Origin: an uncultured Oscillospiraceae bacterium
Lineage (GTDB): Bacteria; Bacillota; Clostridia; Oscillospirales; Ruminococcaceae
Direction of reading: 5' to 3'
Assembly: GCA_949299455.1 (NCBI GenBank)
Contig: CASGAN010000021.1
Location: forward strand, 2,886-66,885
Length of the DNA stretch: 64,000 nt
Below, piece after piece: positions 6,264-38,445 of the stretch. A program made the translations under genes and the position numbers. The stretch's first letter is position 1. Each line of letters begins with the position of its first letter. The notes under the pieces were generated by a model, which was not told where the DNA came from, ran no database searches, and saw only the letters and a list, made by a program, of their open reading frames with translations.

Positions 6264-7376
6264 TTACAGTTCGCCGCGGCTCTTTGCTTTTAAGAATGCA
6301 TTGATAAAGCCGTCGATGTCGCCATCCATCACCGCTTGAATGTTGCCGTTTTCAAAGCCGGTGCGATGGTCTTTTGCAAGGGTATACGGCATGAAAACAT
6401 AGGAGCGGATCTGGCTGCCCCATGCGATTTCTTTCTGCACGCCTTTGATATCCTCGATTTTGTCAAAATGCTCGCGCTCTTTGATCTGAATAAGCTTTGA
6501 TTTGAGCATTTTCATTGCGTTCGCTTTGTTTTGCAGCTGGCTGCGCTCGGTCTGGCAAGCGCAGACGATGCCGGTCGGAATATGCGTAATACGCACTGCC
6601 GACGACACCTTGTTGACGTTCTGACCACCTGCACCGCCGGAACGGTAGGTATCGACCTGCAAATCCTCCGGACGGATGTTGACTTCAATGCTGTCGTCGA
6701 TTTCCGGCATAACCTCAAGCGATGCAAACGATGTGTGACGGCGTCCCGACGAGTCAAACGGCGAAACACGCACCAGACGATGGACGCCGTTCTCACTCTT
6801 CAAAAAGCCGTATGCGTTCTCGCCCTCGACAATGAAGCTGACACTCTTGATGCCTGCTTCGTCGCCTGCAAGATAGTCAAGCGTTTTAACGTTGAAACCT
6901 TTGCGCTCTGCCCAGCGCTGATACATACGAAACAGCATGCTGACCCAGTCCTGTGCCTCTGTTCCGCCTGCACCTGCGTGGAATGTAAGGATCGCGTTGT
7001 TTGCATCATATTCCTCTGTTAATAAGGTACGAAGTTTTAACGTTTCAAGTGTTTCCTTAAACGCATCAAGCTCGGTGCGGAGTTCTTCCTCGACACTTTC
7101 GTCATCTTCCTCAATCGCCATCTCCACGAGCGTCACAAGATCCTCGTGCTGTGCGCACAGCTTCTCATACGATTCCACTGCACTTTTGAGCTGGCTTGTA
7201 TGGCGGAGCACCTTCTGCGACTCCTCCATGTTATCCCAAAAATCAGGCTGTGCCGCACGGCCTTCCAATTCTTCAATTTCCAGTTTCTTTTTATCAATTC
7301 CAAGTGCACTTTTTAACTCATCAAGCTGTGGTGCAAGGTTTGCAAGCTCGACTTTTGTTTCATCATAAAATAACAA
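6264..7376 (-). CDS. prfB: peptide chain release factor 2, encoded in a single uninterrupted frame
   Basis: 370 aa with the SPF tripeptide (RVSPFDSSGRRHTSF) and GGQ (SGGAGGQNVNKV). The N-terminus is colinear with E. coli RF2 across the usual frameshift site. Confidence 0.95.
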   Translation of the reverse strand: MLFYDETKVELANLAPQLDELKSALGIDKKKLEIEELEGRAAQPDFWDNMEESQKVLRHTSQLKSAVESYEKLCAQHEDLVTLVEMAIEEDDESVEEELRTELDAFKETLETLKLRTLLTEEYDANNAILTFHAGAGGTEAQDWVSMLFRMYQRWAERKGFNVKTLDYLAGDEAGIKSVSFIVEGENAYGFLKSENGVHRLVRVSPFDSSGRRHTSFASLEVMPEIDDSIEVNIRPEDLQVDTYRSGGAGGQNVNKVSSAVRITHIPTGIVCACQTERSQLQNKANAMKMLKSKLIQIKEREHFDKIEDIKGVQKEIAWGSQIRSYVFMPYTLAKDHRTGFENGNIQAVMDGDIDGFINAFLKAKSRGEL

Positions 7377-7490
7377 GAAAATCCACCCTTCTGCGGTACT
7401 TCCGCAACAAATCTATCATTCGGTTTTAAGACACGTATACATCTTTATATTATAATCGAACAAATGCCTATTGTAAAGGCTTTTCGCTTC

Positions 7491-7519
7491 TTGACAAGGG
7501 CCTGTTTTGCGTGTATCAT
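7491..7519 (+). promoter_or_regulatory. sigma-A type promoter for nadA (TTGACA-17-TATCAT)
   Basis: TTGACA at 7491-7496, a 17-nt spacer, then TATCAT at 7514-7519, 80 nt upstream of the nadA ATG. Confidence 0.55.
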
Positions 7520-7598
7520 AGATTCAAACAAGACATTGTGTCGGTTTTTATCGTTTTCCGCCTTTTCGCAGCGAAAAAAGCAAGGAGTGCTCTTTTTT

Positions 7599-8510
7599 AT
7601 GTTAAACGATCTGCAAAAACAAATTCTTACACTCAAAAAAGAAAAAAACGCAAAGATCTTTGCACACAGCTATCAATCCCCTGACATTTTGGAAATTGCC
7701 GATTTGACCGGCGATTCTTTCGCATTGAGTGCAAAAGCGCACGAATATGACTGTGACACCATCATTTTATGCGGCGTGCTCTTCATGGCAGAGACACTCA
7801 AGATGCTTTGTCCTGAAAAAAACGTGATTCTTCCTGTCGAACACGCAACCTGCGCAATGGCGGAGCAGATTTCACCGGAACGCGTCATTGCTTTTAAACA
7901 AGAGCACCCCGATTATGCTGTGGTTGCGTATATCAACACCTCCACGGAGTTAAAAGCGGTGAGCGATGTCTGCGTTACTTCATCGAGTGCAGTCAAAATT
8001 GTAAACGCACTGCCGCAGGACAAGATCCTGTTTATTCCTGACAAAAACCTCGGACGATTTGTCCGCAATGCACTCCCGCACAAACACATCGAAGTCTGGG
8101 AGGGATGCTGCCCTGTTCACGATGCTGTCACTGAAGAAGAAGTCCTCGCTGCAAAAGCCGCATATCCAAACGCAAAGCTTTTGATGCATCCGGAACTTCC
8201 GCCCGAGGTGATTCGGCACGCAGATGTTGCCGGTTCCACTGCGGATATTCTTCGGTATGCACACACACATTCTGACGACTGCATCATCGGCACGGAAAAA
8301 AGCGTCGCTGATTTTCTTTCCGTTTGTTATCCTGACCGTCATTTTTATGTGCTGTCCAAAAAGCTGTTCTGCCCGGATATGCGCATTACAAATTTGGGCG
8401 ATGTTTATCACGCACTAAAAGGTGACGGCGGAAAAGTCATCACATTGGACGAAACACTGCGCATCCGCGCGAAAAAGCCAATCGACGAAATGATTCGTCT
8501 TGGCGGATAA
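7599..8510 (+). CDS. nadA: quinolinate synthase NadA
   Basis: The ORF-track ORF 7464..8510 is trimmed to ATG 7599, which is preceded by AAGGAG at 7582-7587. The product MLNDLQKQILTLKKEKNAKIFAHSYQ...ILFIPDKNLG...MHPE is typical of NadA. Confidence 0.9.
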   Translation: MLNDLQKQILTLKKEKNAKIFAHSYQSPDILEIADLTGDSFALSAKAHEYDCDTIILCGVLFMAETLKMLCPEKNVILPVEHATCAMAEQISPERVIAFKQEHPDYAVVAYINTSTELKAVSDVCVTSSSAVKIVNALPQDKILFIPDKNLGRFVRNALPHKHIEVWEGCCPVHDAVTEEEVLAAKAAYPNAKLLMHPELPPEVIRHADVAGSTADILRYAHTHSDDCIIGTEKSVADFLSVCYPDRHFYVLSKKLFCPDMRITNLGDVYHALKGDGGKVITLDETLRIRAKKPIDEMIRLGG

Positions 8511-8518
8511 GGAGAATT

Positions 8519-9142
8519 ATGGACTCGTTTGCTCATGTATCAAAACCGGCACGCGCACAAAACGCACGTGTCAAACGAACAAAAGCAGCTTTATATGAAA
8601 GTCTTGCCTCGTTAATGCTCGAAAAAAACGTCAATGCCATTACTGTACGGGAACTGACCAGCCGCGCAAATATCAATCGCGCGACCTTCTATATTCACTA
8701 TAAAGACATTGACGATATGATCTGTCAGGTTCGCAAAGAAATTCTTGACGATTTTTCTGTTGTACTGAACACCCATCACACAGAGATCAGCGGCGAGCGT
8801 CCGCACTCCATGCTTTGTGATATGTTCCGTTTCTTGGAACGGCATGCCAGCATCTGCAAAGCGTTTTTGGGAACGCATGGTGATGCAGAATTTATCAGCC
8901 TGCTCCGCAACAAGCTCTTGGACAAATGTGTAACAGACTGGGCAAAGCTGTTCCCCTCTCACCCGATTGCATATGTGCCGGAATATTTTTCTGTGTTTGT
9001 TGTCACAGGATGCATCGGTCTGTTTGAACACTGGATCGATACCGGAATGCGCCAAACACCGGAAGAAATGGCATATATGGCAGATCAAATGTTCAGAAAC
9101 GGCATCCGCTTTCTGCAAATGCCGGCACCGCCCTCGTTTTAA
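8519..9142 (+). CDS. TetR/AcrR family transcriptional regulator
   Basis: 207 aa with the N-terminal HTH signature ITVRELTSRANINRATFYIHYKDIDD. Confidence 0.8.
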   Translation: MDSFAHVSKPARAQNARVKRTKAALYESLASLMLEKNVNAITVRELTSRANINRATFYIHYKDIDDMICQVRKEILDDFSVVLNTHHTEISGERPHSMLCDMFRFLERHASICKAFLGTHGDAEFISLLRNKLLDKCVTDWAKLFPSHPIAYVPEYFSVFVVTGCIGLFEHWIDTGMRQTPEEMAYMADQMFRNGIRFLQMPAPPSF

Positions 9143-29581: not shown

Positions 29582-29593
29582 ATGATCGTTTGT

Positions 29594-29692
29594 TTTCAAA
29601 GAAACAATTATTTCAGTGCTTCTTCGACAGCAACTGCACAAGCAACGGTTGCACCAACCATCGGGTTATTGCCCATGCCCATGAGGCCCATC
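29594..29692. repeat. left 99-bp direct repeat (attL-like)
   Basis: Base-for-base identical to 37428-37526 by manual comparison. Confidence 0.95.
29608..29690 (-). pseudogene. displaced 3'-terminal fragment of the GGGtGRT gene (27 codons + stop) inside the left repeat
   Basis: The minus strand reads ATGGGCCTCATGGGCATGGGCAATAAC...GAAGAAGCACTGAAATAA, which translates to MGLMGMGNNPMVGATVACAVAVEEALK*. Its codon usage matches the gene body. Confidence 0.7.
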
Positions 29693-29802
29693 AATGCCAG
29701 TACTTACGGGGGTTGCGCTTGTGCTACGCTAAAAAGCTAAACACATCATTCTATTTATTTTATAAGCAAAATGCCGGTGTATATACTCTTTACAAGCCGG
29801 AT

Positions 29803-30423
29803 TTAATTGTTTTCTTCAGTAAGTTTCACCAACTTATAAAAGCTGGTGCGTTTGGTTTGCGTTTGTTCCATTGCAGTTTTAGCGGTGATAGTCCCCGCTT
29901 TCCAAGAAGAATAGATTTCTTTCCAATTGTTAGGGAATTGCAAAGCGGGACGTCCTAATATTTTGCCCTTTGCCTTTGCCGCTTTTATTCCTTCTGCTTG
30001 CCGCTTGCGTATAATTTCGCGTTCCTGCTCTGCAATAGTTCCCAAGACTTCAATCAGAACGTTATTCACCATTTCAAAAACCCATTTTTGACCTTCTGGT
30101 AGTTCCATCATAGTGGTCGGTAAATCAATCACTTTTAAGCGGATTTGGTTATCTTTGAAAAACTGCAACTCATTCTTAATGTCTGATTTGTTTCGGCTTA
30201 AACGGTCAAGGGATTTAATCACAAGAGTATCGCCGCGCCGCAACATGGCATTTTTAAGTGCTTGATATCCTATCCTTTCCAAGTCCTTGCCACTTTCTTT
30301 ATCGGTGATAATATCCCTCTCTTGTGCGCCTAGCGCCTTAAATGCGGCAATCTGACGGTCAAGATTCTGTTCCTTACTTGAAACTCTCGCATAATAATAG
30401 GTTCTGCTTTCCAATCTATTCAC
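29803..30423 (-). CDS. small serine recombinase (resolvase/invertase family) with C-terminal HTH
   Basis: 206 aa with YYARVSSKEQNLDRQ (catalytic Ser motif), LVIKSLDRLSRN and a C-terminal HTH-like TAKTAMEQTQTKRTSFYKL. Confidence 0.85.
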   Translation of the reverse strand: MNRLESRTYYYARVSSKEQNLDRQIAAFKALGAQERDIITDKESGKDLERIGYQALKNAMLRRGDTLVIKSLDRLSRNKSDIKNELQFFKDNQIRLKVIDLPTTMMELPEGQKWVFEMVNNVLIEVLGTIAEQEREIIRKRQAEGIKAAKAKGKILGRPALQFPNNWKEIYSSWKAGTITAKTAMEQTQTKRTSFYKLVKLTEENN

Positions 30424-30456
30424 CTCCTTTCTGACTTGTTTTTATTATTCCACAAC

Positions 30457-30517
30457 TATTCGTAAAAGTCAATATATTTACGAATATATTTGTAAATTAA
30501 AATCTATATTTTACGAA
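30457..30517. promoter_or_regulatory. res/hix-like recombinase binding sites upstream of the serine recombinase gene
   Basis: A perfect 10-bp inverted repeat TATTCGTAAA-N10-TTTACGAATA (30457-30486) is followed by an imperfect one, TTTGTAAA-N13-TTTACGAA (30489-30517). A further half-site-like TTTAACGAAC lies at about 30559. Confidence 0.5.
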
Positions 30518-30957
30518 CAAATAAACAGAATTGTTTTTATATATCCGCAAAGGTGTACTTTAACGAACGCTTTAATAAAATAACAACTTTTAACATCTTC
30601 AAGTAACTTCTAAAGATTTCTGTTCGTCTTCCTGCAACTATCAACGACTATGCAAGAAAAAATAACAACTAATAAATAAAAGCAGTCACCAAACACTTTG
30701 AAAATGCCGGCGGTTTTTCATATGAAAAATTTTTCTTATTATAAGAAATCGCAAAATGATGCGCAGCCATATGCCGATAAACCCAGTAACCATGCGGGTT
30801 TGCGGGCTTTTTCTGAACGTCTAAATTCTTTCATTTTTCAGGGGCAGAATCTTGCATAGTATATACGCTATAATATAGTCACAGCAAAGGGAAAGGCGCC
30901 TTCCTTAAGCGGTACAAAATAAAGGGTAGCGACCAACCGCCGAAAGGAGCAATCTCT

Positions 30958-31407
30958 ATGAAAAACACAAATAATTATACTGTTGATTTTATGAATAAAA
31001 CTATTATTGTATCGAAGACATTTTACAAGAAAGCAATAAGCAGTATCAACAATACCGAATATACCGAATTGAAAGTCTTGATTACCGATTATCCTAAATA
31101 TAAAATCAAATTGCGGGAAATCAAGAGAAAGGAAGGAAAAAAAACAAATCGTAATTTAACGTATAGCAATATGAAGAAGTATATTACTGAAAGTGTCACT
31201 GATGCAAAAGCAGATCTTGCCGAATTTGAAAAGGTACAAAAGACTTCCTGTGTGTTTCCTTCGCCTTATGTCTATGTTAAGGACTGGTTTACTAAGAAAT
31301 ATCCCGAATACGGAAAGTGGCTTGAACAGTTATCAAAAGAGAAAGAGCAAAAGACAAAAGAAACTGAGGAACAGACCGTTTCTATTGAATCACTCACCAA
31401 AAATTAA
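30958..31407 (+). CDS. hypothetical basic protein, island paralogue A
   Basis: 149 aa with RBS AAAGGAG. Colinear blocks shared with the next ORF include NLTYSNMKKYI/GLTYEKMKKFI, EFEKV/QFEKV and VKDWF..YPEY/VKRWF..FPNY. Confidence 0.6.
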   Translation: MKNTNNYTVDFMNKTIIVSKTFYKKAISSINNTEYTELKVLITDYPKYKIKLREIKRKEGKKTNRNLTYSNMKKYITESVTDAKADLAEFEKVQKTSCVFPSPYVYVKDWFTKKYPEYGKWLEQLSKEKEQKTKETEEQTVSIESLTKN

Positions 31408-31430
31408 GAAATGGAAGGAAGTGTTAAATA

Positions 31431-31889
31431 ATGAAAAACGGATATAAGATTAATTTTGTGAGCGGGACTATTATCCTGACGAAAGCGTTTTGTACGCAAG
31501 CAAGTGAAAAAGGAAGCGAAGCATATAACACGCTTATGGGATTAAAAAATGAATTACCGCATATGCGCTTTATTACAAGAAACGCAGCAAGGAAAACACG
31601 CGGACTAACTTATGAGAAAATGAAGAAATTTATCGCGTGCCAAAATGATTCTGACGTTCTCTTGATTCAGTTCGAAAAAGTAAAGGAATTGGCAAAAGGG
31701 CAAGGCGGTAACGCCTATCAAAATGTAAAGAGATGGTTTATGCAAACCTTCCCCAATTACAAAGATATTCCTTCTTTTGACGAAGTGGGTAACCTAACAA
31801 GTGATTTTGGAAGGAAACCGCAAACAAGGATATTCCCTATAGAGCAAACTGTACCAGCAGAAAAGCGGGAAGAACAGAAAACCGCATGA
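31431..31889 (+). CDS. hypothetical basic protein, island paralogue B
   Basis: 152 aa and a paralogue of 30958..31407. No family was recognised. Confidence 0.6.
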   Translation: MKNGYKINFVSGTIILTKAFCTQASEKGSEAYNTLMGLKNELPHMRFITRNAARKTRGLTYEKMKKFIACQNDSDVLLIQFEKVKELAKGQGGNAYQNVKRWFMQTFPNYKDIPSFDEVGNLTSDFGRKPQTRIFPIEQTVPAEKREEQKTA

Positions 31890-31895
31890 ATGAGA

Positions 31896-31944
31896 AACGA
31901 CGAAAGAGAGAAAAGCACAAATGGCTTTTCTCTCTTTCGTCGTT
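31896..31944. terminator. bidirectional terminator between convergent island genes
   Basis: A perfect 21-bp stem AACGACGAAAGAGAGAAAAGC / GCTTTTCTCTCTTTCGTCGTT with a 7-nt loop. Confidence 0.8.
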
Positions 31945-32276
31945 TATTTCCATTTCACAGTCATACCGTGCTTCTTAAATACTCTGTCCATTTCTTTTTC
32001 AAAGACATCTTTAATCATCTTTTCTGTGGTCTTTGCTACAGTACTTTTGACATCATAGTTAATATTGATTTGCGCGTTTTCAAGTTCCCTTAACTTAAAT
32101 GCTATTTCTTCATTGACAATTTGACGGATCATTTGTCTTAAATTAGTGTCGGCATATTCGTTTATCACTTTATTTGCAATATCAAACATTTCTTGTCGGT
32201 GTTCTTCTGCGTGACCACCGTGTATATCTTCATTCCGCATACGAAGTATGGCATTTACAAAGGTATCGTTGTTCAT
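31944..32276 (-). CDS. hypothetical 110-aa helical protein
   Basis: ORF with AGGTGAAAAATG-type RBS (GAGGTGAA upstream). No recognisable motif. Confidence 0.5.
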   Translation of the reverse strand: MNNDTFVNAILRMRNEDIHGGHAEEHRQEMFDIANKVINEYADTNLRQMIRQIVNEEIAFKLRELENAQININYDVKSTVAKTTEKMIKDVFEKEMDRVFKKHGMTVKWK

Positions 32277-32579
32277 TTTTCACCTCATATAGTATTCTGC
32301 TTGGAAGCAGAAAGAGAATTTATTATTTTTACTACTTAGAAGTAAGATAATGAACAACTTCTTATATTAAAAGCAATCATAATAAAAAGGGAGCGGGTAA
32401 GGTGGGGGAGGTTTTGGTATATGAAAAATATCGGTTTTATATTTTTTAAAATTCCCCACGCACATTGTCAGACCGAAATGCTTTTTGCTTTTCCAAATTT
32501 TAATTTTTGTAGTATATATCATATAAATTTTGGCACAATCAAAGCAATGCCAAAATTTAGAGAGTATTTATATAGATTA

Positions 32580-33803
32580 TTATAAATTGGCATCGTGTTC
32601 TGTGATAATGCGATACCTCTTATTATCTATTCTTATTTCTGTCACCTGATAGTGATTTTTTGTTAAGCGCTGTTCAAGTGAAGGCCATCCAATGACTCTA
32701 CCCTTATTATCCTTAACTTTTAGTTTTAAACATAGTTCTTTTCTCTCTTCAACAGATAAAGGTCTATCTAAATATTCGTCTGGCACGATTATTTCTGTAT
32801 CATAGTCCAGTACATATAACTTCTTTAAATCGTCCCGATACCGTCCGCGTACTTGCATACGCGTATCTTCTGTTCTGTCATGAACAAACATATAATCAAC
32901 TTGTCCCCGAATATTGATTCCTGTTTCGCAACTAGCGTTAATGAGAAGTACGTCAATATCTGGTGGCAGTTTCTCTTTCTCTATAATATAGCGCCGTACA
33001 TTATCCTGTTCATCAGTCATTTTATGATCTTTACTCTGTGTGCTCCAAATAGCGCTACATTTGCTAATGCCCTTTTCTTTTATCTTTTCCCATAGTTGTT
33101 TCATTTGAGTAATACTTTTGACATAAACAATTACTTTATCACCTTCTTGAATGGTGTCAACAATATAATTTATATCATTGTATTTGATAGTTTCGAAAGT
33201 TTCATACTGGCGCACATCCGGGTCAACCGGAATATAGTGGACTTTATCCTGGAAAAAATATTTTTCAGTAATAGCGGGTGTTGCAGATAACCCAACTATT
33301 TTGACATTAGAGTGATCTATTAACTCTCCCAATCTCTGAACTGCCTTTAAAGTATATTGCCCATCACTACTGTCTTCATTTTTATATGAAGTCATGCGAA
33401 TTCCCTGATGGATTTCATCACAAATAATCGCTTCAAACTGATAACCGAAATTTGGGATTTTATTCGTTAAAGCTCCAAATTTGGCATAGGTGATTACAAT
33501 GATTTTATCTTCATCATAAAAGTCATATTCGCCAATAACGCGTTGCGGCCGATTTCCTTGTTTTACAAAATTTTCCCACTCATGACTATATGCCGTGGTA
33601 TTTGGATTCTTCAAAATTTGATCGCGCCCGTTTGTAGTATCAATCACATAAAGATATTTGCTGTTTCTGCTTGCTATTTTCGTAAGGCGTCCCAATGCAA
33701 AGGTTGTTTTACCACTACCGCAAGGTGCTTTTATTACGTTAAATATTCCACTTTTAATGTCACTGATATCTACTGCTTCTGAAAGCCACTTTGTACCCTT
33801 CAT
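32580..33803 (-). CDS. compact SF2 (DExH-type) helicase
   Basis: 407 aa with motif I APCGSGKTT at residues ~26-34, motif II IICDEIH, motif III GLSATP and motif VI QVRGRYRD. There is no extra N-terminal domain, and a ~70-aa C-terminal tail. Confidence 0.8.
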   Translation of the reverse strand: MKGTKWLSEAVDISDIKSGIFNVIKAPCGSGKTTFALGRLTKIASRNSKYLYVIDTTNGRDQILKNPNTTAYSHEWENFVKQGNRPQRVIGEYDFYDEDKIIVITYAKFGALTNKIPNFGYQFEAIICDEIHQGIRMTSYKNEDSSDGQYTLKAVQRLGELIDHSNVKIVGLSATPAITEKYFFQDKVHYIPVDPDVRQYETFETIKYNDINYIVDTIQEGDKVIVYVKSITQMKQLWEKIKEKGISKCSAIWSTQSKDHKMTDEQDNVRRYIIEKEKLPPDIDVLLINASCETGINIRGQVDYMFVHDRTEDTRMQVRGRYRDDLKKLYVLDYDTEIIVPDEYLDRPLSVEERKELCLKLKVKDNKGRVIGWPSLEQRLTKNHYQVTEIRIDNKRYRIITEHDANL

Positions 33804-33850
33804 TAAATTTTCAGTCCTTTCTAAATTTTAATTGTCATTAAAAATAAAAT

Positions 33851-33875
33851 GAAGCAGTACATTTTGCACTGCTTC
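33851..33875 (-). terminator. terminator-like hairpin within the helicase 5' leader
   Basis: On the minus strand, GAAGCAGT-N9-ACTGCTTC is followed by ATTTTATTTTT. It lies between the TTGAAA-17-TATAAT promoter (33937-33909) and the ATG at 33803. Confidence 0.5.
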
Positions 33876-33908
33876 TTGAAACAACTATCCATTGTTTCTC
33901 TCTTGTTT

Positions 33909-33937
33909 TTCTGTATACATTATACAATAAATTCGGC
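33909..33937 (-). promoter_or_regulatory. sigma-A promoter for the helicase gene (TTGAAA-17-TATAAT)
   Basis: Minus strand: TTGAAA (33937-33932), a 17-nt spacer, then TATAAT (33914-33909). Confidence 0.55.
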
Positions 33938-34009
33938 GCATTTTCAAATTTTAACTGTATAATAATTACAAAAATAGCGGGTGCCTTCTACAGCAACAGG
34001 ATACAATTG

Positions 34010-34046
34010 GGCACAAAAAAGAAGAAAAGCCTCCCACAAGGGAGGC
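34010..34046 (-). terminator. rho-independent terminator after the zinc-ribbon gene
   Basis: On the minus strand, GCCTCCC-TTGT-GGGAGGC is followed by TTTTCTTCTTTTTT. Confidence 0.8.
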
Positions 34047-34066
34047 AGTAATAATAAATTATTGTA

Positions 34067-34468
34067 TCAATCTGCATCAATAAAGTCTACGCGTTGCAAT
34101 TCCATAACTGTTTTCATAACTCCCTGACGAGTGTGAACGCTGTATTTTTTACCTTTTGAGGGATCAATAATACCACTGCATTTACCCCCATAATACATTG
34201 CACTCATTTTATATTGAATTTCAACAGACGTTGGACCGTTAAAAAATACTTCTGCTATTTGTCCAACTAAACCTTCCCAAACAAGTTTTCCATTTGCCCA
34301 CATGAAAGCTTTCTGTTTGCCGCCAAAAGCTCCTCTTTGTAACGCTGTCATTTTGATTTGACATACTCCATCAGGTTTTAGCGCTTGAATTGGGTATGCA
34401 CAATTCGGGCAGACCGCTGCTTTATCAGATACTTCTTTCCCGCATTCTGGGCATTTGATCATTGCCAT
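34067..34468 (-). CDS. zinc-ribbon domain protein with a C-terminal ~100-aa beta-rich domain
   Basis: 133 aa with an N-terminal CPECGKEVSDKAAVCPNC (Cys4 ribbon). Its start overlaps the stop of the upstream membrane gene (TAATG), with AAGGAGG 8 nt upstream. Confidence 0.7.
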   Translation of the reverse strand: MAMIKCPECGKEVSDKAAVCPNCAYPIQALKPDGVCQIKMTALQRGAFGGKQKAFMWANGKLVWEGLVGQIAEVFFNGPTSVEIQYKMSAMYYGGKCSGIIDPSKGKKYSVHTRQGVMKTVMELQRVDFIDAD

Positions 34469-34788
34469 TAGATATTTCCTCCTTTATTTTCTGTGTTTTT
34501 CGCAATCTGTCCCAAGACCATATAATGTAGCCCCCAAAAATAAAATGGAACGCCTACGAGGCCAACTAAAACACCTAAATAAGTCAATACGACAAGAATG
34601 TTAACAAAACCATACTCAACATGAGCAGACAGGACATAAGGGGCAGCCTCGATTCCCCAACCCAAAATGGCGATCAAAAGAATCGAAAGAAAAATAGCAA
34701 GATCAATCCATAAAACTTTTATTAGATTGCCTCCAAGTCGATAAAATTTTTCACCCTTTTCGAGTACAAGCTCAGGTACATAGTTCAT
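34468..34788 (-). CDS. small integral membrane protein (2-3 TM helices)
   Basis: 106 aa with hydrophobic stretches VLWIDLAIFLSILLIAILGWGI and FVNILVVLTYLGVLVGLVGVPFYFWGL. RBS GAGGAGAG. Confidence 0.6.
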   Translation of the reverse strand: MNYVPELVLEKGEKFYRLGGNLIKVLWIDLAIFLSILLIAILGWGIEAAPYVLSAHVEYGFVNILVVLTYLGVLVGLVGVPFYFWGLHYMVLGQIAKNTENKGGNI

Positions 34789-34881
34789 TACAAATCTCTC
34801 CTCAATTTTTTAATTAACGTGTGCAAAATACTTTTATAGTAGACTAATACATATTTCCCCACGTCACTATTATAATATCAT

Positions 34882-34956
34882 GTTGCAAACAAAAATGCAA
34901 CTATAATAGTTTGCTTTTCGTGTTCTATATAAATGTATATAAAGCAACTATACTAT
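34882..34956. promoter_or_regulatory. operator-like repeats in the divergent island control region
   Basis: An inverted repeat GTTGCA-N8-TGCAAC (34882-34901), nested GCAAAC...GTTTGC, and a direct repeat GCAACTATA at 34897 and 34944. Confidence 0.45.
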
Positions 34957-34975
34957 AAACAGAGGTGATTGCTTT

Positions 34976-35167
34976 ATGAAAGAGAAGTTCGTGATAAAAC
35001 CCAAAACAACACGTTCTGTCACTATGACAATACGTATAGATAGGGAATTGAGCGATAAACTTGATGAGTTGGCGTTAAAAAGCAACCGTTCCCGTAATGA
35101 GTTAATCAATCTGTCATTGCGTTATGCTTTTGAGAATTTGGAGTTTATTGAAGAAGAAAATATTTAA
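34976..35167 (+). CDS. ribbon-helix-helix (CopG/Arc-type) DNA-binding protein
   Basis: 63 aa. VTMTIRIDRELSDKLDELALKSNRSRNELINLSLRYAF fits the beta-strand/helix/helix RHH pattern. Confidence 0.7.
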   Translation: MKEKFVIKPKTTRSVTMTIRIDRELSDKLDELALKSNRSRNELINLSLRYAFENLEFIEEENI

Positions 35168-35247
35168 GACAGTGGGTTTCATATTACTTGTTTTTTGTCC
35201 ATTATACTTTTATACTTAAAGTGTGAATCGAATAAAAAGGTGAGATT

Positions 35248-36264
35248 ATGGCAAGCAGACAGGAACGATTATTGCGTTTGAGGGAAATGTTCCTACAAGA
35301 AACAGACGAAAACCACTACATGACAATAGAAGAAATCGCCCGAAGGCTACAAGCAGATAGGCGCACCATAGAACTGGATATTGACGCACTAATACAATCG
35401 GGTATGGATATTGAAAAGAAACCCCGCCCGAAGTTGTCTTATGCTGTATTATCGCGCGATTTTACATTAGAGGAAATTAAGTTGTTGGTTGACTGTGTAC
35501 AAGTGTCAAAGTTCCTTTCCGAAAAGAAAACACAGGAATTATCAAAGAAACTGTGCAACCTTCGCAGTAAACACGAAGCGGTGCAATTAAGCGGGCAAGT
35601 TCGCCGTAACCATATTAAAAGCGGAAACGAAGGAATTTATCTTCATATTGATATGGTACATAGAGCGATTGCAGAAAAACTGTTTTTGACCTTTCAATAT
35701 ACGGAATATCTACCTACAAAAGAAAAGCGGGCGCAGCATAACGGTAAAATTTATATTGTACTTCCAGGCATGCTGATTTATGCAGAAGAAAATTATTATC
35801 TGCTTGCTGAAGAAATAGAATTTAATAGGCGTTCTATTAAGCATTTTCGACTTGATCGAATGGAAAAGGTTGATACTCTGAATTGCTATAATGGAACAAA
35901 ATCTAAATATTACAGTGCTCCCCATATTCAAGATATAGAGAATTACACAAATCAAAATTTTTCCATGTACGGCGGGGAGGTGGAGCGGGTAACAATTCAG
36001 TTCCCCAATTATTTAGCAGGGGTGGTCTTTGACCGTTTCGGTATGGGCGTACATATTGTGCAAACAGACAAAGAACATTTTCAAATAACGGAACCAATAG
36101 CAGTAAGTCCACAATTTTTTGGATGGGTGTTCGGCTTAGGAAAAGAAGTGAAAATCATAGGACCGAAGCACGTTGCTAAGGAAATGAAAGTCTTACTGAA
36201 AGATACCTATTCCGTTTATACTCTTCATCGCAACCGCAAGAAAAAAGCAGAAAGTTCTCAATAG
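35248..36264 (+). CDS. HTH-WYL-WCX transcriptional regulator (BrxR/CapW/PafBC-like architecture)
   Basis: 338 aa with an N-terminal wHTH (MTIEEIARRLQADRRTIELDIDAL) and a WYL core (NYYLLAEE...IKHFRLDRMEKV). It is colinear with the second WYL protein at 59241..60230. Confidence 0.75.
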   Translation: MASRQERLLRLREMFLQETDENHYMTIEEIARRLQADRRTIELDIDALIQSGMDIEKKPRPKLSYAVLSRDFTLEEIKLLVDCVQVSKFLSEKKTQELSKKLCNLRSKHEAVQLSGQVRRNHIKSGNEGIYLHIDMVHRAIAEKLFLTFQYTEYLPTKEKRAQHNGKIYIVLPGMLIYAEENYYLLAEEIEFNRRSIKHFRLDRMEKVDTLNCYNGTKSKYYSAPHIQDIENYTNQNFSMYGGEVERVTIQFPNYLAGVVFDRFGMGVHIVQTDKEHFQITEPIAVSPQFFGWVFGLGKEVKIIGPKHVAKEMKVLLKDTYSVYTLHRNRKKKAESSQ

Positions 36265-36349
36265 TTCTTAGAGAGAAACGGAAAGTTATCAAAAGTTATT
36301 TATTACTTCTTCCAAGTTGCCGCAAGTTCTTAAAAGATGTTAAAAAGAG

Positions 36350-36390
36350 AGGGCAAACCGATTGTTTTCGGTTTGCCCTTTACTTTTTGA
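36350..36390. terminator. bidirectional terminator between the WYL gene and the integrase gene
   Basis: An 11-bp stem AGGGCAAACCG / CGGTTTGCCCT is followed by TTACTTTTTG. Confidence 0.8.
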
Positions 36391-36395
36391 TTTAA

Positions 36396-37328
36396 TTACC
36401 GCATTTTAATTCCTTCCCGCTTAAATTCGCGTAAAATATTAAATTCTTCCACTTCCTTTTGAATATCACTTACGAGTAAATTAAGGTAATTTTGCGTAAT
36501 CGCAAGACTACTATGCCCTAATATTTTTTGAAGTGTTACGACGTTACCACCTATTAAAATCCATTTCTTTGCAAAAGTATGACGGTAACGGTGCATACCT
36601 GTCTTTTCAACGCCTCTGTTTTTGTTATACTCGTAAAAAGAATGATATACCGTTGACCTCACTAATTGCTTTCCGAACACATTGCAGAATAAATAATCTT
36701 CTGCATCTCCTTTACGATATTTTAAATATTCTTGCAGTATTTTTTTGATATCCGTATTTAAGGGGATAATGAGCGGCTTCCTGTTTTTTGTGACGTTGAT
36801 ATAGACAACTCCCGCGTCAAAATCTACATCTTTTATTTTGATATTGATAAGGCTGTGTTGTCGTACGCCAGTGGATAAAAGGAAATTTGTCATTACCCAT
36901 ACTTTGTACTCTGTAAAACTGCAATGTCGCAAATTCGGCTTTTTTAGAAGCACTTGCAATTCTCTGTCGGTGTATGTTTCTATTGGCTGTTTATCTACCT
37001 TTGGAATTTTAATTTTGAAAGTGGGGATATATTCTTTACGCATAAAGAAATACATCAAAGTTTTAAAGTCTCGCGCATAGGTGTATAAACTCATGTCGTT
37101 TAAGGCTGGATTCTCGCGTAACTGGACAATAAAATCGTCGATCATATTTTGGTCGATATCCTGTATCAACGTATTTTCTCCGATATATTTCAGAATCTGT
37201 TTTGTCGAATCGCTGTAATGCCGAAGTGTACCATTTCTTAAATTGCGTGCCTTACAATCTAAAATATATTCCTCGCACCCTTCCCCAAAAGTCCTGTCAT
37301 GTTCCACTGCCAATCTGATTTTTCCCAT
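36396..37328 (-). CDS. tyrosine-type site-specific integrase
   Basis: ORF 36396..37376 is trimmed to ATG 37328, because the upstream part overlaps a terminator hairpin. Contains a SAM-like N-domain, catalytic-region motifs GVRQHSL, HRYRHTFA and LGHSSLAITQNYL, and a candidate catalytic Tyr. Confidence 0.85.
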   Translation of the reverse strand: MGKIRLAVEHDRTFGEGCEEYILDCKARNLRNGTLRHYSDSTKQILKYIGENTLIQDIDQNMIDDFIVQLRENPALNDMSLYTYARDFKTLMYFFMRKEYIPTFKIKIPKVDKQPIETYTDRELQVLLKKPNLRHCSFTEYKVWVMTNFLLSTGVRQHSLINIKIKDVDFDAGVVYINVTKNRKPLIIPLNTDIKKILQEYLKYRKGDAEDYLFCNVFGKQLVRSTVYHSFYEYNKNRGVEKTGMHRYRHTFAKKWILIGGNVVTLQKILGHSSLAITQNYLNLLVSDIQKEVEEFNILREFKREGIKMR

Positions 37329-37356
37329 TTGATTTTCCTTTCCCCGGCATAAAAAA

Positions 37357-37400
37357 GTTGGACACGTCATTCGCATTTTGCTTAAAATGACGTGTCCAAC
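37357..37400 (-). terminator. island-borne replacement terminator just inside the right repeat
   Basis: A perfect 14-bp stem GTTGGACACGTCAT / ATGACGTGTCCAAC. On the minus strand it is followed by TTTTTT. It lies between the host gene stop and the integrase start. Confidence 0.75.
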
Positions 37401-37427
37401 GAATTTTTTAGAAAATCAATAGGTTCG

Positions 37428-37526
37428 TTTCAAAGAAACAATTATTTCAGTGCTTCTTCGACAGCAACTGCACAAGCAACGGTTGCACCAACCATCGGGT
37501 TATTGCCCATGCCCATGAGGCCCATC
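37428..37526. repeat. right 99-bp direct repeat (attR-like)
   Basis: Identical to 29594-29692. Confidence 0.95.
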
Positions 37527-38445
37527 CCATCATCTCAACGTGAGCCGGAACAGAGGACGAACCTGCGAACTGTGCGTCACCGTGCATACGACCCATGGAG
37601 TCGGTCAAGCCGTAAGAAGCCGGGCCTGCTGCCACGTTGTCCGGGTGCAGTGTACGGCCTGTGCCGCCGCCCGATGCAACAGAGAAGTATTTTTTGCCGT
37701 TTTCCATTGCCCATTTTTTGTAGGTGCCTGCAACCAGGTGCTGGAAGCGGGTCGGGTTGGTGGAGTTACCGGTGATGGAAACGTCAACTTTCTCTTTTTT
37801 CATGACTGCAACGCCTTCGAGCACGTCGTTTGCGCCGTAGCATTTAACAGCAGCTTTTTCGCCGTTCGAGAACGGAACTTCGCGGACAACGGTCAGTTCG
37901 CCGGTGCTGAAATCAAAGCTTGTCTCAACATAGGTGAAGCCGTTGATTCTCGAAATGATGTAAGCTGCGTCTTTGCCCAAACCGTTCAGGATGACACGGA
38001 GCGGAGTTTTACGAGCTTTGTTTGCAGTTCTTGCGATACCGATTGCGCCCTCAGCAGCAGCGAACGACTCGTGGCCTGCGAGGAAGCAGAAGCAGTCGGT
38101 CTCTTCGCGCAGCAGCATTGCGCCCAAGTTGCCGTGGCCCTGGCCAACGTTGCGCTGTTCAGCAACGGAGCCCGGAACACAGAATGCCTGCAGGCCGATG
38201 CCGATTGCCTCAGCAGCGTCAGCAGCTTTGTTTGCGCCTTTTTTCAGAGCAACAGCGGTGCCCAGTGTGTATGCCCAAACCGCATTTTCAAATGCGATCG
38301 GCTGAACACCTTTGACGATTTCTTCTACATTGATGCCTTTTTCCAGGCAGAAGTCTCTTGCTTCTTCGAGAGTAGCAAAGCCATACTCAGCGAGGCATTT
38401 CTCGATTTTCGGCATTCTTCTCTCTTTACCTTCAAATTGTGCCAT
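37447..38445 (-). CDS. GGGtGRT family protein (function unknown), with the C-terminal ~25 residues apparently out of frame
   Basis: 332 aa containing the name-giving SGGGTGRTLHPDN motif. After ...AHVEMMG the annotated frame gives a Trp-rich tail, WASWAWAITRWLVQ. The alternative frame gives MGLMGMGNNPMVGATVACAVAVEEALK with gene-like codon usage. Confidence 0.75.
   Translation of the reverse strand: MAQFEGKERRMPKIEKCLAEYGFATLEEARDFCLEKGINVEEIVKGVQPIAFENAVWAYTLGTAVALKKGANKAADAAEAIGIGLQAFCVPGSVAEQRNVGQGHGNLGAMLLREETDCFCFLAGHESFAAAEGAIGIARTANKARKTPLRVILNGLGKDAAYIISRINGFTYVETSFDFSTGELTVVREVPFSNGEKAAVKCYGANDVLEGVAVMKKEKVDVSITGNSTNPTRFQHLVAGTYKKWAMENGKKYFSVASGGGTGRTLHPDNVAAGPASYGLTDSMGRMHGDAQFAGSSSVPAHVEMMGWASWAWAITRWLVQPLLVQLLSKKH

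Follow-up and report, generated by a model that had tools for sequence, protein, structure and literature searches.

The interior of a 7.8-kb integrative island in an uncultured Oscillospiraceae bacterium: six adjacent genes that are not inherited together

The stretch of DNA analyzed here (the window) comprises 64,000 nucleotides (nt) of contig CASGAN010000021.1 (assembly GCA_949299455.1) of an uncultured Oscillospiraceae bacterium. Between 31944 and 36264 it holds six adjacent genes, which encode a ribbon-helix-helix (RHH) protein, a helix-turn-helix (HTH) regulator with a WYL domain, a small membrane protein, a zinc-ribbon protein, a compact superfamily 2 (SF2) helicase and a helical protein of 110 amino acids (aa). 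An original prediction from the sequence alone had taken these for one regulator-controlled defense or exclusion module, and had named service of the helicase to the surrounding island as the competing reading. The six genes are not one co-inherited unit, and the competing reading is the better supported of the two. The account that we favor, at roughly even odds, is that these genes lie within a site-specific integrative element of 7.8 kb, composed of three separately inherited modules: a backbone, a regulator module and a cargo slot. (Coordinates are positions in the window; L-numbers designate loci fetched from other genomes.)

The island extends from 29585 to 37526 (~7.8 kb) and is set off from its surroundings by low GC content (34-37%, against ~48% in the flanks). 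It is edged by 108-nt direct repeats that are 96% identical at a spacing of 7834, and carries two recombinases at opposite ends, a tyrosine integrase (326 aa) and a serine recombinase (206 aa). Repeats that duplicate the 3' end of a target gene, recombinases at the edges and atypical composition are thus all present, as looked for in an integrative element, and the mobile-island context of the original prediction was correct. So were its six open reading frames (ORFs), its helicase motifs and its overlap, ribosome-binding site and terminator, all of which are found where it had placed them (ORF list, domain scans, sequence), as well as its domain calls of RHH, HTH-WYL, Cys4 zinc ribbon and SF2 helicase (Pfam). 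The genes and edges of the island are the following (strand given where one applies).

29585..29692, left direct repeat (attL-like): duplicates the GGGtGRT-family host gene at its 3' end
29803..30423, minus strand, small serine recombinase of resolvase/invertase type, 206 aa: Pfam Resolvase 2e-29; phrog_125 DNA invertase 1e-47
30958..31889, plus strand, two paralogous p150-family genes (149 aa and 152 aa): p149 and p152 are 35% identical
31944..32276, minus strand, p110, helical protein, 110 aa: backbone partner of the helicase
32580..33803, minus strand, compact SF2 helicase, 407 aa: Pfam ResIII 9.6e-15, DEAD 7e-8; core gene of the element family
34067..34468, minus strand, zinc-ribbon plus beta-sandwich protein ZnR133, 133 aa: Pfam Zn_Ribbon_1 3e-7; N-terminal CPEC...CPNC
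34468..34788, minus strand, small membrane protein TM106, 106 aa: 2-3 hydrophobic (transmembrane, TM) segments
34976..35167, plus strand, ribbon-helix-helix regulator RHH63, 63 aa: Pfam RHH_1 1e-6
35248..36264, plus strand, HTH_11-WYL-WCX regulator WYL338, 338 aa: Pfam HTH_11 3e-6, WYL 5e-6, WCX 9e-5; PADLOC WYL 7e-21
36396..37376, minus strand, tyrosine integrase, Xer-like, 326 aa: Pfam Phage_integrase 7e-32; NCBIfam XerA-like 2e-41, under cut-off
37419..37526, right direct repeat (attR-like): overlaps the GGGtGRT-family host gene (37447-38445, minus strand) at its 3' end

The reverse complement of the left repeat codes for ...MGLMGMGNNPMVGATVACAVAVEEALK*, in agreement with the C-terminal end of the GGGtGRT homologue in L068; the same target gene also flanks, in L068 and L069, the island that carries a 116-aa membrane protein (TM116). 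At attR (37447-37530) the host gene has an extra ATGGG at the repeat boundary by comparison with the L068 homologue and with the repeat-encoded frame (...MGLMGMGNNPMVGATVACAVAVEEALK*), which places its last ~25 codons out of frame; either the integration event or faulty assembly could account for this. The island has a second occurrence in an unrelated metagenome: L053, a stand-alone contig of 7827 bp, is 100% identical to it over 7719 bp and terminates within the att repeat, an end compatible with heterogeneity of the population. Relative to window position 29693, L053 carries (at 7720-7749) a 30-nt insertion at the boundary on the serine-recombinase side, lengthening the duplicated end of the host gene (…GTTGAGATGATGG…). 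Megablast of the island DNA against phage and plasmid collections found no near-identical match.

Separate inheritance of the parts is seen in the neighborhoods of their homologues. Forty-two loci were fetched by way of helicase homologues, 39 of them with an intact helicase ORF, and neighbors were sought by tblastn of each island protein and by clustering of all ORFs. The genes found beside these 39 helicases are a tyrosine integrase (26 loci), a serine recombinase (21 loci, at ~1-3 kb), p150 (15-20) and p110 (6); the remaining genes of the window are scarce there, with WYL in 6 loci, a zinc-ribbon N-terminus in 3, RHH in 1 and TM106 in none. A census of the 149 ORFs lying within 2.2 kb of the helicases yields 15 Resolvase, 14 Phage_integrase and 5 XRE HTH proteins, and no other replication initiator, primase, relaxase or transfer gene. 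ZnR133 homologues, for their part, have no WYL, TM106 or helicase gene nearby, and TM106 homologues have no WYL gene nearby. The full six-gene set is found elsewhere only in the identical island L053.

Three further contexts document the exchange of modules. The closest relative, L007 (Massiliimalia massiliensis; helicase 75% identical), has the order integrase, divergent XRE gene, 339-aa lipoprotein, helicase, p110, serine recombinase. It lacks RHH, WYL, TM106 and ZnR133, and its regulator and the gene upstream of its helicase are unrelated to those of the window. In L067, which was found through its membrane protein and is not one of the 39, the order is integrase, three small genes (divergent, and including an RHH63 homologue), TM107 (70% identical to TM106), a 346-aa lipoprotein, helicase, p110 and serine recombinase; compared with the window, a lipoprotein stands in place of ZnR133 and other regulators stand in place of WYL338. 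Finally, L068-L070 have TM116, a 298-aa multi-TM protein, an RHH63 homologue and a 346-aa lipoprotein adjoining the GGGtGRT gene, without the helicase. (The L068-L070 island, at ~5100-11000 of L068, is also without integrase and adds an HTH_17 gene and a 547-aa Cys-rich repeat surface protein; it may be a decayed element or a different element at the same site.) The integrases of the window, L007, L067 and L003 are mutually different proteins.

It follows from the neighbor counts and from the exchanges in L007, L067 and L068-L070 that the six genes are not inherited as one unit, and the proposal of a single regulator-controlled defense module fails this co-occurrence test, one that the original prediction had itself named as decisive against it, across the 39 helicase loci as well as in the contexts of ZnR133 and TM106. 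The groupings that do hold are helicase and p110 with serine recombinase and p150, and RHH with TM106; ZnR133 and WYL are individually swappable.

The features of the non-coding DNA are listed here in order.

30458..30485, res-like dyad ATTCGTAAA-N10-TTTACGAAT, read from sequence, 35 nt upstream of the serine recombinase start
31897..31943, bidirectional terminator-like hairpin, 20-bp perfect, between p152 and the 110-aa gene
32277..32579, minus strand, conserved non-coding spacer from helicase to p110: 82% identical to L007, with indels not multiples of three
32538..32596, minus strand, family-wide palindrome TGCCAA...TCTATATAA...TTGGCA, overlapping the helicase stop codon; sole copy in the window
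33875-33851, minus strand, terminator-like hairpin with T-run in the helicase leader, between promoter and start codon
33947-33919, minus strand, promoter-like site TTGAAA-17-TATAAT preceding the helicase gene
34029..34046, minus strand, terminator-like hairpin GCCTCCC-N4-GGGAGGC plus T-run after ZnR133, closing the cargo slot
34789..34975, divergent control region with operator-like palindrome GTTGCA-N8-TGCAAC at 34882-34901
36348..36381, bidirectional terminator-like hairpin between the WYL gene and the integrase

The slot-closing terminator, the helicase promoter with its leader, and the 300-nt spacer between helicase and p110 are kept at the DNA level in L007, and the slot-closing hairpin is found at the same place in both L007 and L067, downstream of different cargo. 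(In an Rfam scan the only matches were miRNA-like ones, located at the perfect 31.9-kb hairpin.)

What precedes the helicase is a slot that is occupied, in the closest clade, by a different envelope protein in each lineage: lipoproteins, a protein with zinc ribbon, TM segment and ectodomain, a zinc-ribbon 7-TM protein together with an 8-TM protein, and signal-peptide proteins. The slot holds AbiH or SIR2_2 in the most distant clade (27-30% identity) and p150 in many other loci. Since the lipoproteins are secreted they are not effectors driven by a cytoplasmic helicase, so that a hot spot for cargo fits better than a helicase with a variable effector. In the window the slot holds TM106 and ZnR133, whose genes overlap (TAATG at 34468, with AAGGAGG 8 nt upstream). 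TM106 is rare, with 4 clusters in a collection of 5.8 billion proteins, and has no family match in Pfam, PHROG, NCBIfam or PADLOC scans. The gene that follows it differs in each of its three contexts (outside the window, in L067 and L068-L070, it encodes a lipoprotein or a multi-TM protein and not a zinc ribbon), and each of these contexts has RHH63 or a homologue close by. ZnR133 has neither signal peptide nor TM segment and is therefore cytoplasmic. Its model (AlphaFold2, AF2; predicted local distance difference test, pLDDT, 79) is all-beta, a zinc ribbon plus a beta-sandwich. Most of its ~26 full-length homologues stand alone in unrelated neighborhoods; in L061, an element of the L003 type, a homologue occupies the same slot without a TM106 gene.

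Position and analogy make it plausible that TM106 and ZnR133 act in superinfection exclusion or in immunity. The genes for superinfection exclusion (the Ltp lipoproteins and Sie) are likewise small membrane protein or lipoprotein genes lying beside an element's regulator and having their own promoter, and in L054 a ZnR133 homologue is found near a Lipoprotein_Ltp gene and Rce1-like (CPBP/Abi) genes. On the other hand, TM106 and ZnR133 have no sequence or fold match to Sie, Ltp or PADLOC models, and scans of PADLOC, Pfam and PHROG give no match that assigns them a function.

The regulators are exchanged as well. The divergent control region between RHH63 (plus strand) and TM106 (minus strand) lies where the original prediction had put it. 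Its counterpart in L067, between RHH and TM107, is ~65-70% identical and has the palindrome as CTTGCA...TGCAAG, with a compensatory outer change, and the conserved TTGCA-N8-TGCAA site overlaps the -35 element of the TM106 promoter. This placement fits repression by RHH63, which would bind the site as its operator. RHH63 homologues stand beside TM106 homologues in L067 (38% identical) and L068 (40%), in the latter convergent with the TM116 operon; in the window RHH and TM106 diverge across 187 bp, rather than forming the bicistron of a type II toxin-antitoxin pair. A 19-nt direct repeat, TGTGCAAAATACTTTTATA / TGTCCATTATACTTTTATA, is found in the TM106 leader (34820-34838) and between the RHH and WYL genes (35196-35214), and is a candidate for an operator common to both.

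Defense loci are known to be controlled by HTH-WYL-WCX regulators. WYL338 has the architecture of the BrxR/CapW regulators and, like them, is encoded on a mobile island near a divergent promoter. It differs in having no known defense system downstream or divergent (PADLOC, 10 island proteins), and in that the regulator and its putative effectors do not co-occur across genomes (WYL in 6/39). Its PADLOC matches are to two CRISPR-associated WYL models, and against PDB sequences it has no match at E <= 1. Related WYL genes lie directly upstream of a p150-p150-helicase array (L036) and beside an integrase (L021; 40% identical), and the position of WYL338 is taken in L067 by unrelated 144-aa and 75-aa genes and in L007 by an XRE gene. 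WYL338 thus looks like one of several interchangeable element-level regulators and not like the marker of a particular defense system.

The helicase is the core of what remains when regulators and cargo are set aside. It carries motifs I (APCGSGKTT, at residue 22), II (CDEIH), III (SATP) and VI (QVRGRYR). The statement that it has no additional N-terminal domain holds; the description gains a conserved C-terminal domain of ~75 residues with helix-helix-strand-strand topology (residues ~335-407 of the AF2 model, mean pLDDT 88.6). Its homologues, ~400 proteins with lengths of 390-450 aa that fall into 388 clusters at 50% identity (E<1e-30), come from gut Clostridia, many of them on 5-9-kb contigs; a few longer family members have N-terminal extensions that contain no Pfam domain and are not fused p150. 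The PHROG matches of the helicase are annotated 'DNA helicase' and 'replication'. Searches of plasmids and phages by tblastn gave distant matches only (24-31% identity, GenBank phages contributing one at 31%), an IMG/VR scan for the family gave 2 weak matches confined to the N-terminus, and comparison of the family profile with PDB sequences gave weak generic SF2 matches only.

The leader of the helicase gene is nearly identical in L007 and L001 despite different upstream cargo. Together with the terminator-like hairpin between promoter and start codon, and with a second small hairpin ahead of it (GAAACAA...TTGTTTC), this conservation suggests attenuation-type control of the helicase. Three copies of the 14-mer TTAAAATTTGGAAA (at most 1 mismatch) flank the helicase gene at 32490-32503, 33818-33831 and 33941-33954, all on the minus strand, one lying over its -35 element and one over its ribosome-binding site; the copies are clustered, and enrichment across the window is not significant (4 against 1.8 expected, equaled in 13/100 shuffles).

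At the 3' end of the helicase gene lies a family-wide palindrome of ~55 nt with the form TGCCAAAA…CTATAWAAG…TTTTGGCA (consensus ACTGCCAAAATTGTATG-TTCTATATAAGA-CATACAATTTTGGCAG, followed by a T-rich tract), whose outer arm is TGCCA and whose center is CTATATAA. It is found at this place in the window, L003, L005, L009-L039 and L067, and in ~24 loci it starts between -7 and +7 nt from the helicase stop. The window copy scores 33.6 bits with the covariance model R1 (E 6e-5 within the island). In the 16-bp stem 75.9% of cells are paired (62.7% when shuffled), and covariation is 0.375 against 0.177 for shuffled alignments (0/500 shuffles as high) and 0.08-0.14 for slid controls, with double changes in 14/16 stem pairs. 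Very divergent elements share the sequence of the outer arms and of the center, and copies within one element have a common inner-stem sequence; tandem copies follow the helicase in L009, L010 and L016. An intrinsic terminator has a short G+C-rich stem, a loop of 3-8 nt and a T-run behind them. Here the consensus and many copies do end in a T-rich tract, but the stems are long (16-22 bp) and A+T-rich, and the unpaired center of the consensus is ~18 nt; a terminator scan makes no call at the window copy. The spacer between helicase and p110 holds, in addition, a TTTTGGCA-N12-TGCCAAAA palindrome with a compensatory change in L007.

Herpesvirus UL9 is an SF2 helicase with a C-terminal domain of DNA-binding type, and OriS, the origin that it serves, is a ~45-bp palindrome with inverted outer boxes and an A+T center. 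By analogy, the palindrome described here may be the cis-acting site of the helicase, an origin with inverted boxes around an A+T center. The likeness is one of arrangement, in that a helicase with a C-terminal domain of DNA-binding type and a palindrome centered on A+T are found in both. It is not one of sequence: Herpes_ori_bp (PF02399) is matched by 1/30 family members (E 0.022), with no match at gathering score, PDB profile matches to UL9 are at E ~0.1, and binding of the palindrome by the helicase is putative.

Two partners of the helicase, p110 and p150, are proteins without family matches. p110, which has no Pfam, PHROG, NCBIfam or PADLOC match, has homologues downstream of the helicase in L007 (61% identical), L067 (67%), L003, L010, L011 and L045. 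The p150 proteins share the motifs K-x-Y-x-G-L-T-Y-x-x-M-E-x-Y-I and Y-P-x-V-K-x-W-F. They are often tandem paralogues and usually lie directly upstream of the helicase on the same strand, with genes in L005, L009, L014, L016, L022, L025, L028, L030, L031, L036, L038 and L039; p149 and p152 are without Pfam, PHROG or NCBIfam matches, and the p150 profile finds nothing credible among PDB sequences (E >= 0.1). The dyad upstream of the serine recombinase is a perfect 9-bp inverted repeat with a third half-site, TTTACGAA, ~30 nt beyond, and in its sequence looks like a res or crossover site. The genes at the recombinase end of L067 are a second cargo position of the element: at 7057-9077 of that locus, an ORF of 345 aa (zinc ribbon plus nucleoside-deoxyribosyltransferase-like) starts 35 nt after the serine recombinase and is followed by an Rce1-like (CPBP/Abi) membrane protease.

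How such an element would work can be outlined on the modular reading. The data show its anatomy, the pattern of co-occurrence, the covarying palindrome and the swapping of modules; replication, operator binding and an exclusion phenotype we infer. The backbone (helicase, palindrome, spacer, p110, the two p150 proteins and the serine recombinase) would be the element's own DNA-processing unit, most likely for replication or maintenance. The tyrosine integrase would excise the element; the helicase, bound through its C-terminal domain, would open the adjacent AT-centered palindrome; host enzymes would copy the excised circle, and the resolvase-type recombinase would resolve multimers at the dyad upstream of its gene. 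The regulator module, RHH and WYL, takes the place that an XRE repressor or other small regulators have in relatives. The divergent TM106 promoter is probably repressed by RHH at the TTGCA-N8-TGCAA palindrome, and WYL probably couples expression to a ligand or to a signal of the DNA-damage type. The cargo slot, between regulator and helicase and closed by the conserved terminator, would here supply TM106 and ZnR133, most plausibly for exclusion or immunity at the level of the envelope.

A number of observations weigh against this account, and most of them bear on the role of the helicase. The loci were ascertained through the helicase, which makes its ubiquity circular and leaves only the identity of its neighbors informative. 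No circular junction or terminal overlap was found among the fetched whole contigs. Extra copies of the palindrome follow the integrase, p110 or the serine recombinase in L003, L011, L021 and L027, and a T-run trails many copies; on both counts the palindrome may instead be a family-specific bidirectional terminator or a module boundary, and no origin. When PDB and BFVD were searched with Foldseek, the helicase model retrieved only generic two-RecA SF2 cores at a TM-score of ~0.5, which does not discriminate. Only one bona fide plasmid, the circular pRGI00100, carries a distant homologue (24% identical); it was considered as a helicase-only replicon and rejected as such: it has its own Rep_3 initiator, and its helicase gene is split. 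The linkage of helicase and serine recombinase also suits a defense cassette, small serine recombinases being reported as markers of anti-phage genes in Bacillota (PMC13552941, 2026).

Resemblance to a known replication protein speaks for the account, within limits. The helicase domain of CyRepA1 (NF042913) is the most consistent named relative of the family and its commonest NCBIfam match (17/30 members, best 1.1e-9); CyRepA1 itself matches Pfam Herpes_ori_bp. With the window helicase the match takes in the second RecA lobe and continues past it (residues 203-373), at 33.9 bits and E 1.7e-8; all matches of the family to CyRepA1 are far under the curated cut-off of 200 bits. CyRepA1 (Slr7037) is required for the Synechocystis plasmid pSYSA to persist as an autonomous replicon (PMC9978351). 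It is, however, a protein of 958 aa with a DUF3854 primase-type domain at 145-271 that is absent from the window helicase, it belongs to a cyanobacterial plasmid and not to an integrative element of Clostridia, and hhalign with Slr7037 gives a probability of 22%.

A more far-reaching version of the modular reading can be offered only tentatively, with the odds against it. Helicase, palindrome, p110, p150 and serine recombinase would constitute an undescribed family of minimal (6-9 kb) integrative elements, widespread in gut Clostridia, in which an SF2 helicase with a DNA-binding domain at its C-terminus is the initiator on a hairpin-forming origin, as with UL9 and OriS, and the palindromes double as boundaries for the exchange of regulators, integrases and envelope or defense cargo. 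The family and its palindrome appear to be undescribed so far, and a search of the literature found no description of such elements.

Rather unlikely, in our estimate, is that the helicase, with p110 and/or p150, is a serine-recombinase-associated anti-phage or anti-plasmid cassette that moves among integrative elements, for which the integrases and regulators would be host backbone and the palindrome a terminator or recombination boundary. The reported linkage of small serine recombinases to known and new defense genes in Bacillota (PMC13552941) speaks for it, as does the presence of the serine recombinase in 21/39 loci while the type of integrase varies. A p150 gene directly upstream resembles the arrangement of two-gene helicase systems, distant members adjoin AbiH or SIR2_2, PADLOC reports weak matches to Cas3 and HamB cores, and the pRGI00100 homologue coexists with a Rep_3 initiator. 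Those PADLOC matches are, however, to generic motifs I and II (at best 27.6 bits, for Cas3; HamB 14.6 bits over 36 residues), without partner models and with no system called, and none of the named helicase defense systems (Cas3, Hachiman HamB, type IV DinG, PbeA) gives a full-length match. Nor do helicase, p110 or p150 contain a nuclease or other effector domain. Their contexts are almost always islands of 6-9 kb without other replication or transfer genes, and not prophages, integrative and conjugative elements or large defense islands; conservation of the palindrome at the stop codon of helicases that are 27-75% identical would also be unexpected for a defense gene.

The published recombinase-linked arrangement (RADS; PMC13552941) permits a closer comparison. 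It shares with the island a resolvase/invertase-type recombinase of ~200 aa tightly linked to variable accessory genes in mobile DNA of Bacillota. Its defining feature is a co-transcribed ORF on the same strand, starting at most 100 bp after the small serine recombinase, and the main text of that paper mentions neither helicase nor WYL nor zinc ribbon (PMC13552941). In L067 the 345-aa ORF stands in just this relation to the recombinase. In the window, by contrast, the recombinase is the last gene: it ends at 29803, attL begins at 29692, and no ORF lies between them.

Staphylococcal pathogenicity islands (SaPI) and other phage-inducible chromosomal islands (PICI) are bounded by an integrase and carry a divergent regulator pair, an initiator of helicase type with its cognate site just 3' of the gene, and cargo. 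The window island shares this layout of integrase, divergent regulators, helicase with a 3' site and cargo. It is nevertheless improbable that it represents a minimal phage satellite or helper-dependent element, in which helicase and palindrome would serve helper-induced replication, the envelope cargo would act against helper or competitors, and WYL and RHH would sense infection. In size (6-9 kb), and in consisting of an integrase, a regulator, a gene of replication type and a few small ORFs, such elements do resemble PICMI and PICI, the identical island is present in a second sample as a stand-alone contig broken at the att repeat, and one census neighbor ORF has a phage capsid domain. But SaPI Rep is not a compact SF2 protein, and the primase, packaging and interference genes of SaPIs are absent here. 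Among the 10 island proteins (Pfam, PHROG) there are no packaging, hijacking, capsid-remodeling or terminase-small-subunit genes such as characterize the recognized satellites (PICI, cfPICI, P4-like, PLE, PICMI). The helicase family is nearly absent from IMG/VR and from GenBank phages, phage and plasmid collections hold no near-identical DNA, and there is no known helper.

It is very improbable that all six genes form one WYL/RHH-controlled defense or abortive-infection system, with the helicase sensing foreign DNA and the TM/zinc-ribbon pair as membrane effector: HTH-WYL-WCX regulators do control defense loci (PMC13622015), membrane effectors and helicases are common in defense systems, all six genes lie side by side on a mobile island with a divergent promoter region before them, and the variable gene upstream of the helicase (TM, SIR2, AbiH) is superficially like effector swapping, but the set recurs only in L053, TM106/ZnR133 are split from the helicase by a terminator, by the helicase's own promoter and by its conserved leader, signals that are kept in relatives with other cargo, that cargo includes secreted lipoproteins and signal-peptide proteins, and many helicase loci have only p150 upstream. 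Of the checks that the original prediction had put forward, profile searches of the island proteins (Pfam, PHROG, NCBIfam, PADLOC) recovered no named system, PADLOC yielding generic helicase-core matches and the two CRISPR-associated WYL models only, and Foldseek added to the generic SF2 cores of the helicase only non-significant beta-sandwich matches for the ZnR133 model (E >= 0.04).

If the modular reading is true, screens of gene neighborhoods should not score this helicase family as defense on account of WYL, recombinase or membrane neighbors, and the family marks a common, as yet unnamed, class of small integrative elements of gut Clostridia. The slot in which lipoproteins, membrane proteins, AbiH and SIR2 are exchanged is a practical place to seek new exclusion and defense genes. 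The palindrome at the helicase stop codon, finally, makes with the helicase a testable pair of enzyme and cis-acting site, and may represent a kind of bacterial origin, so far new, at which an SF2 helicase acts.

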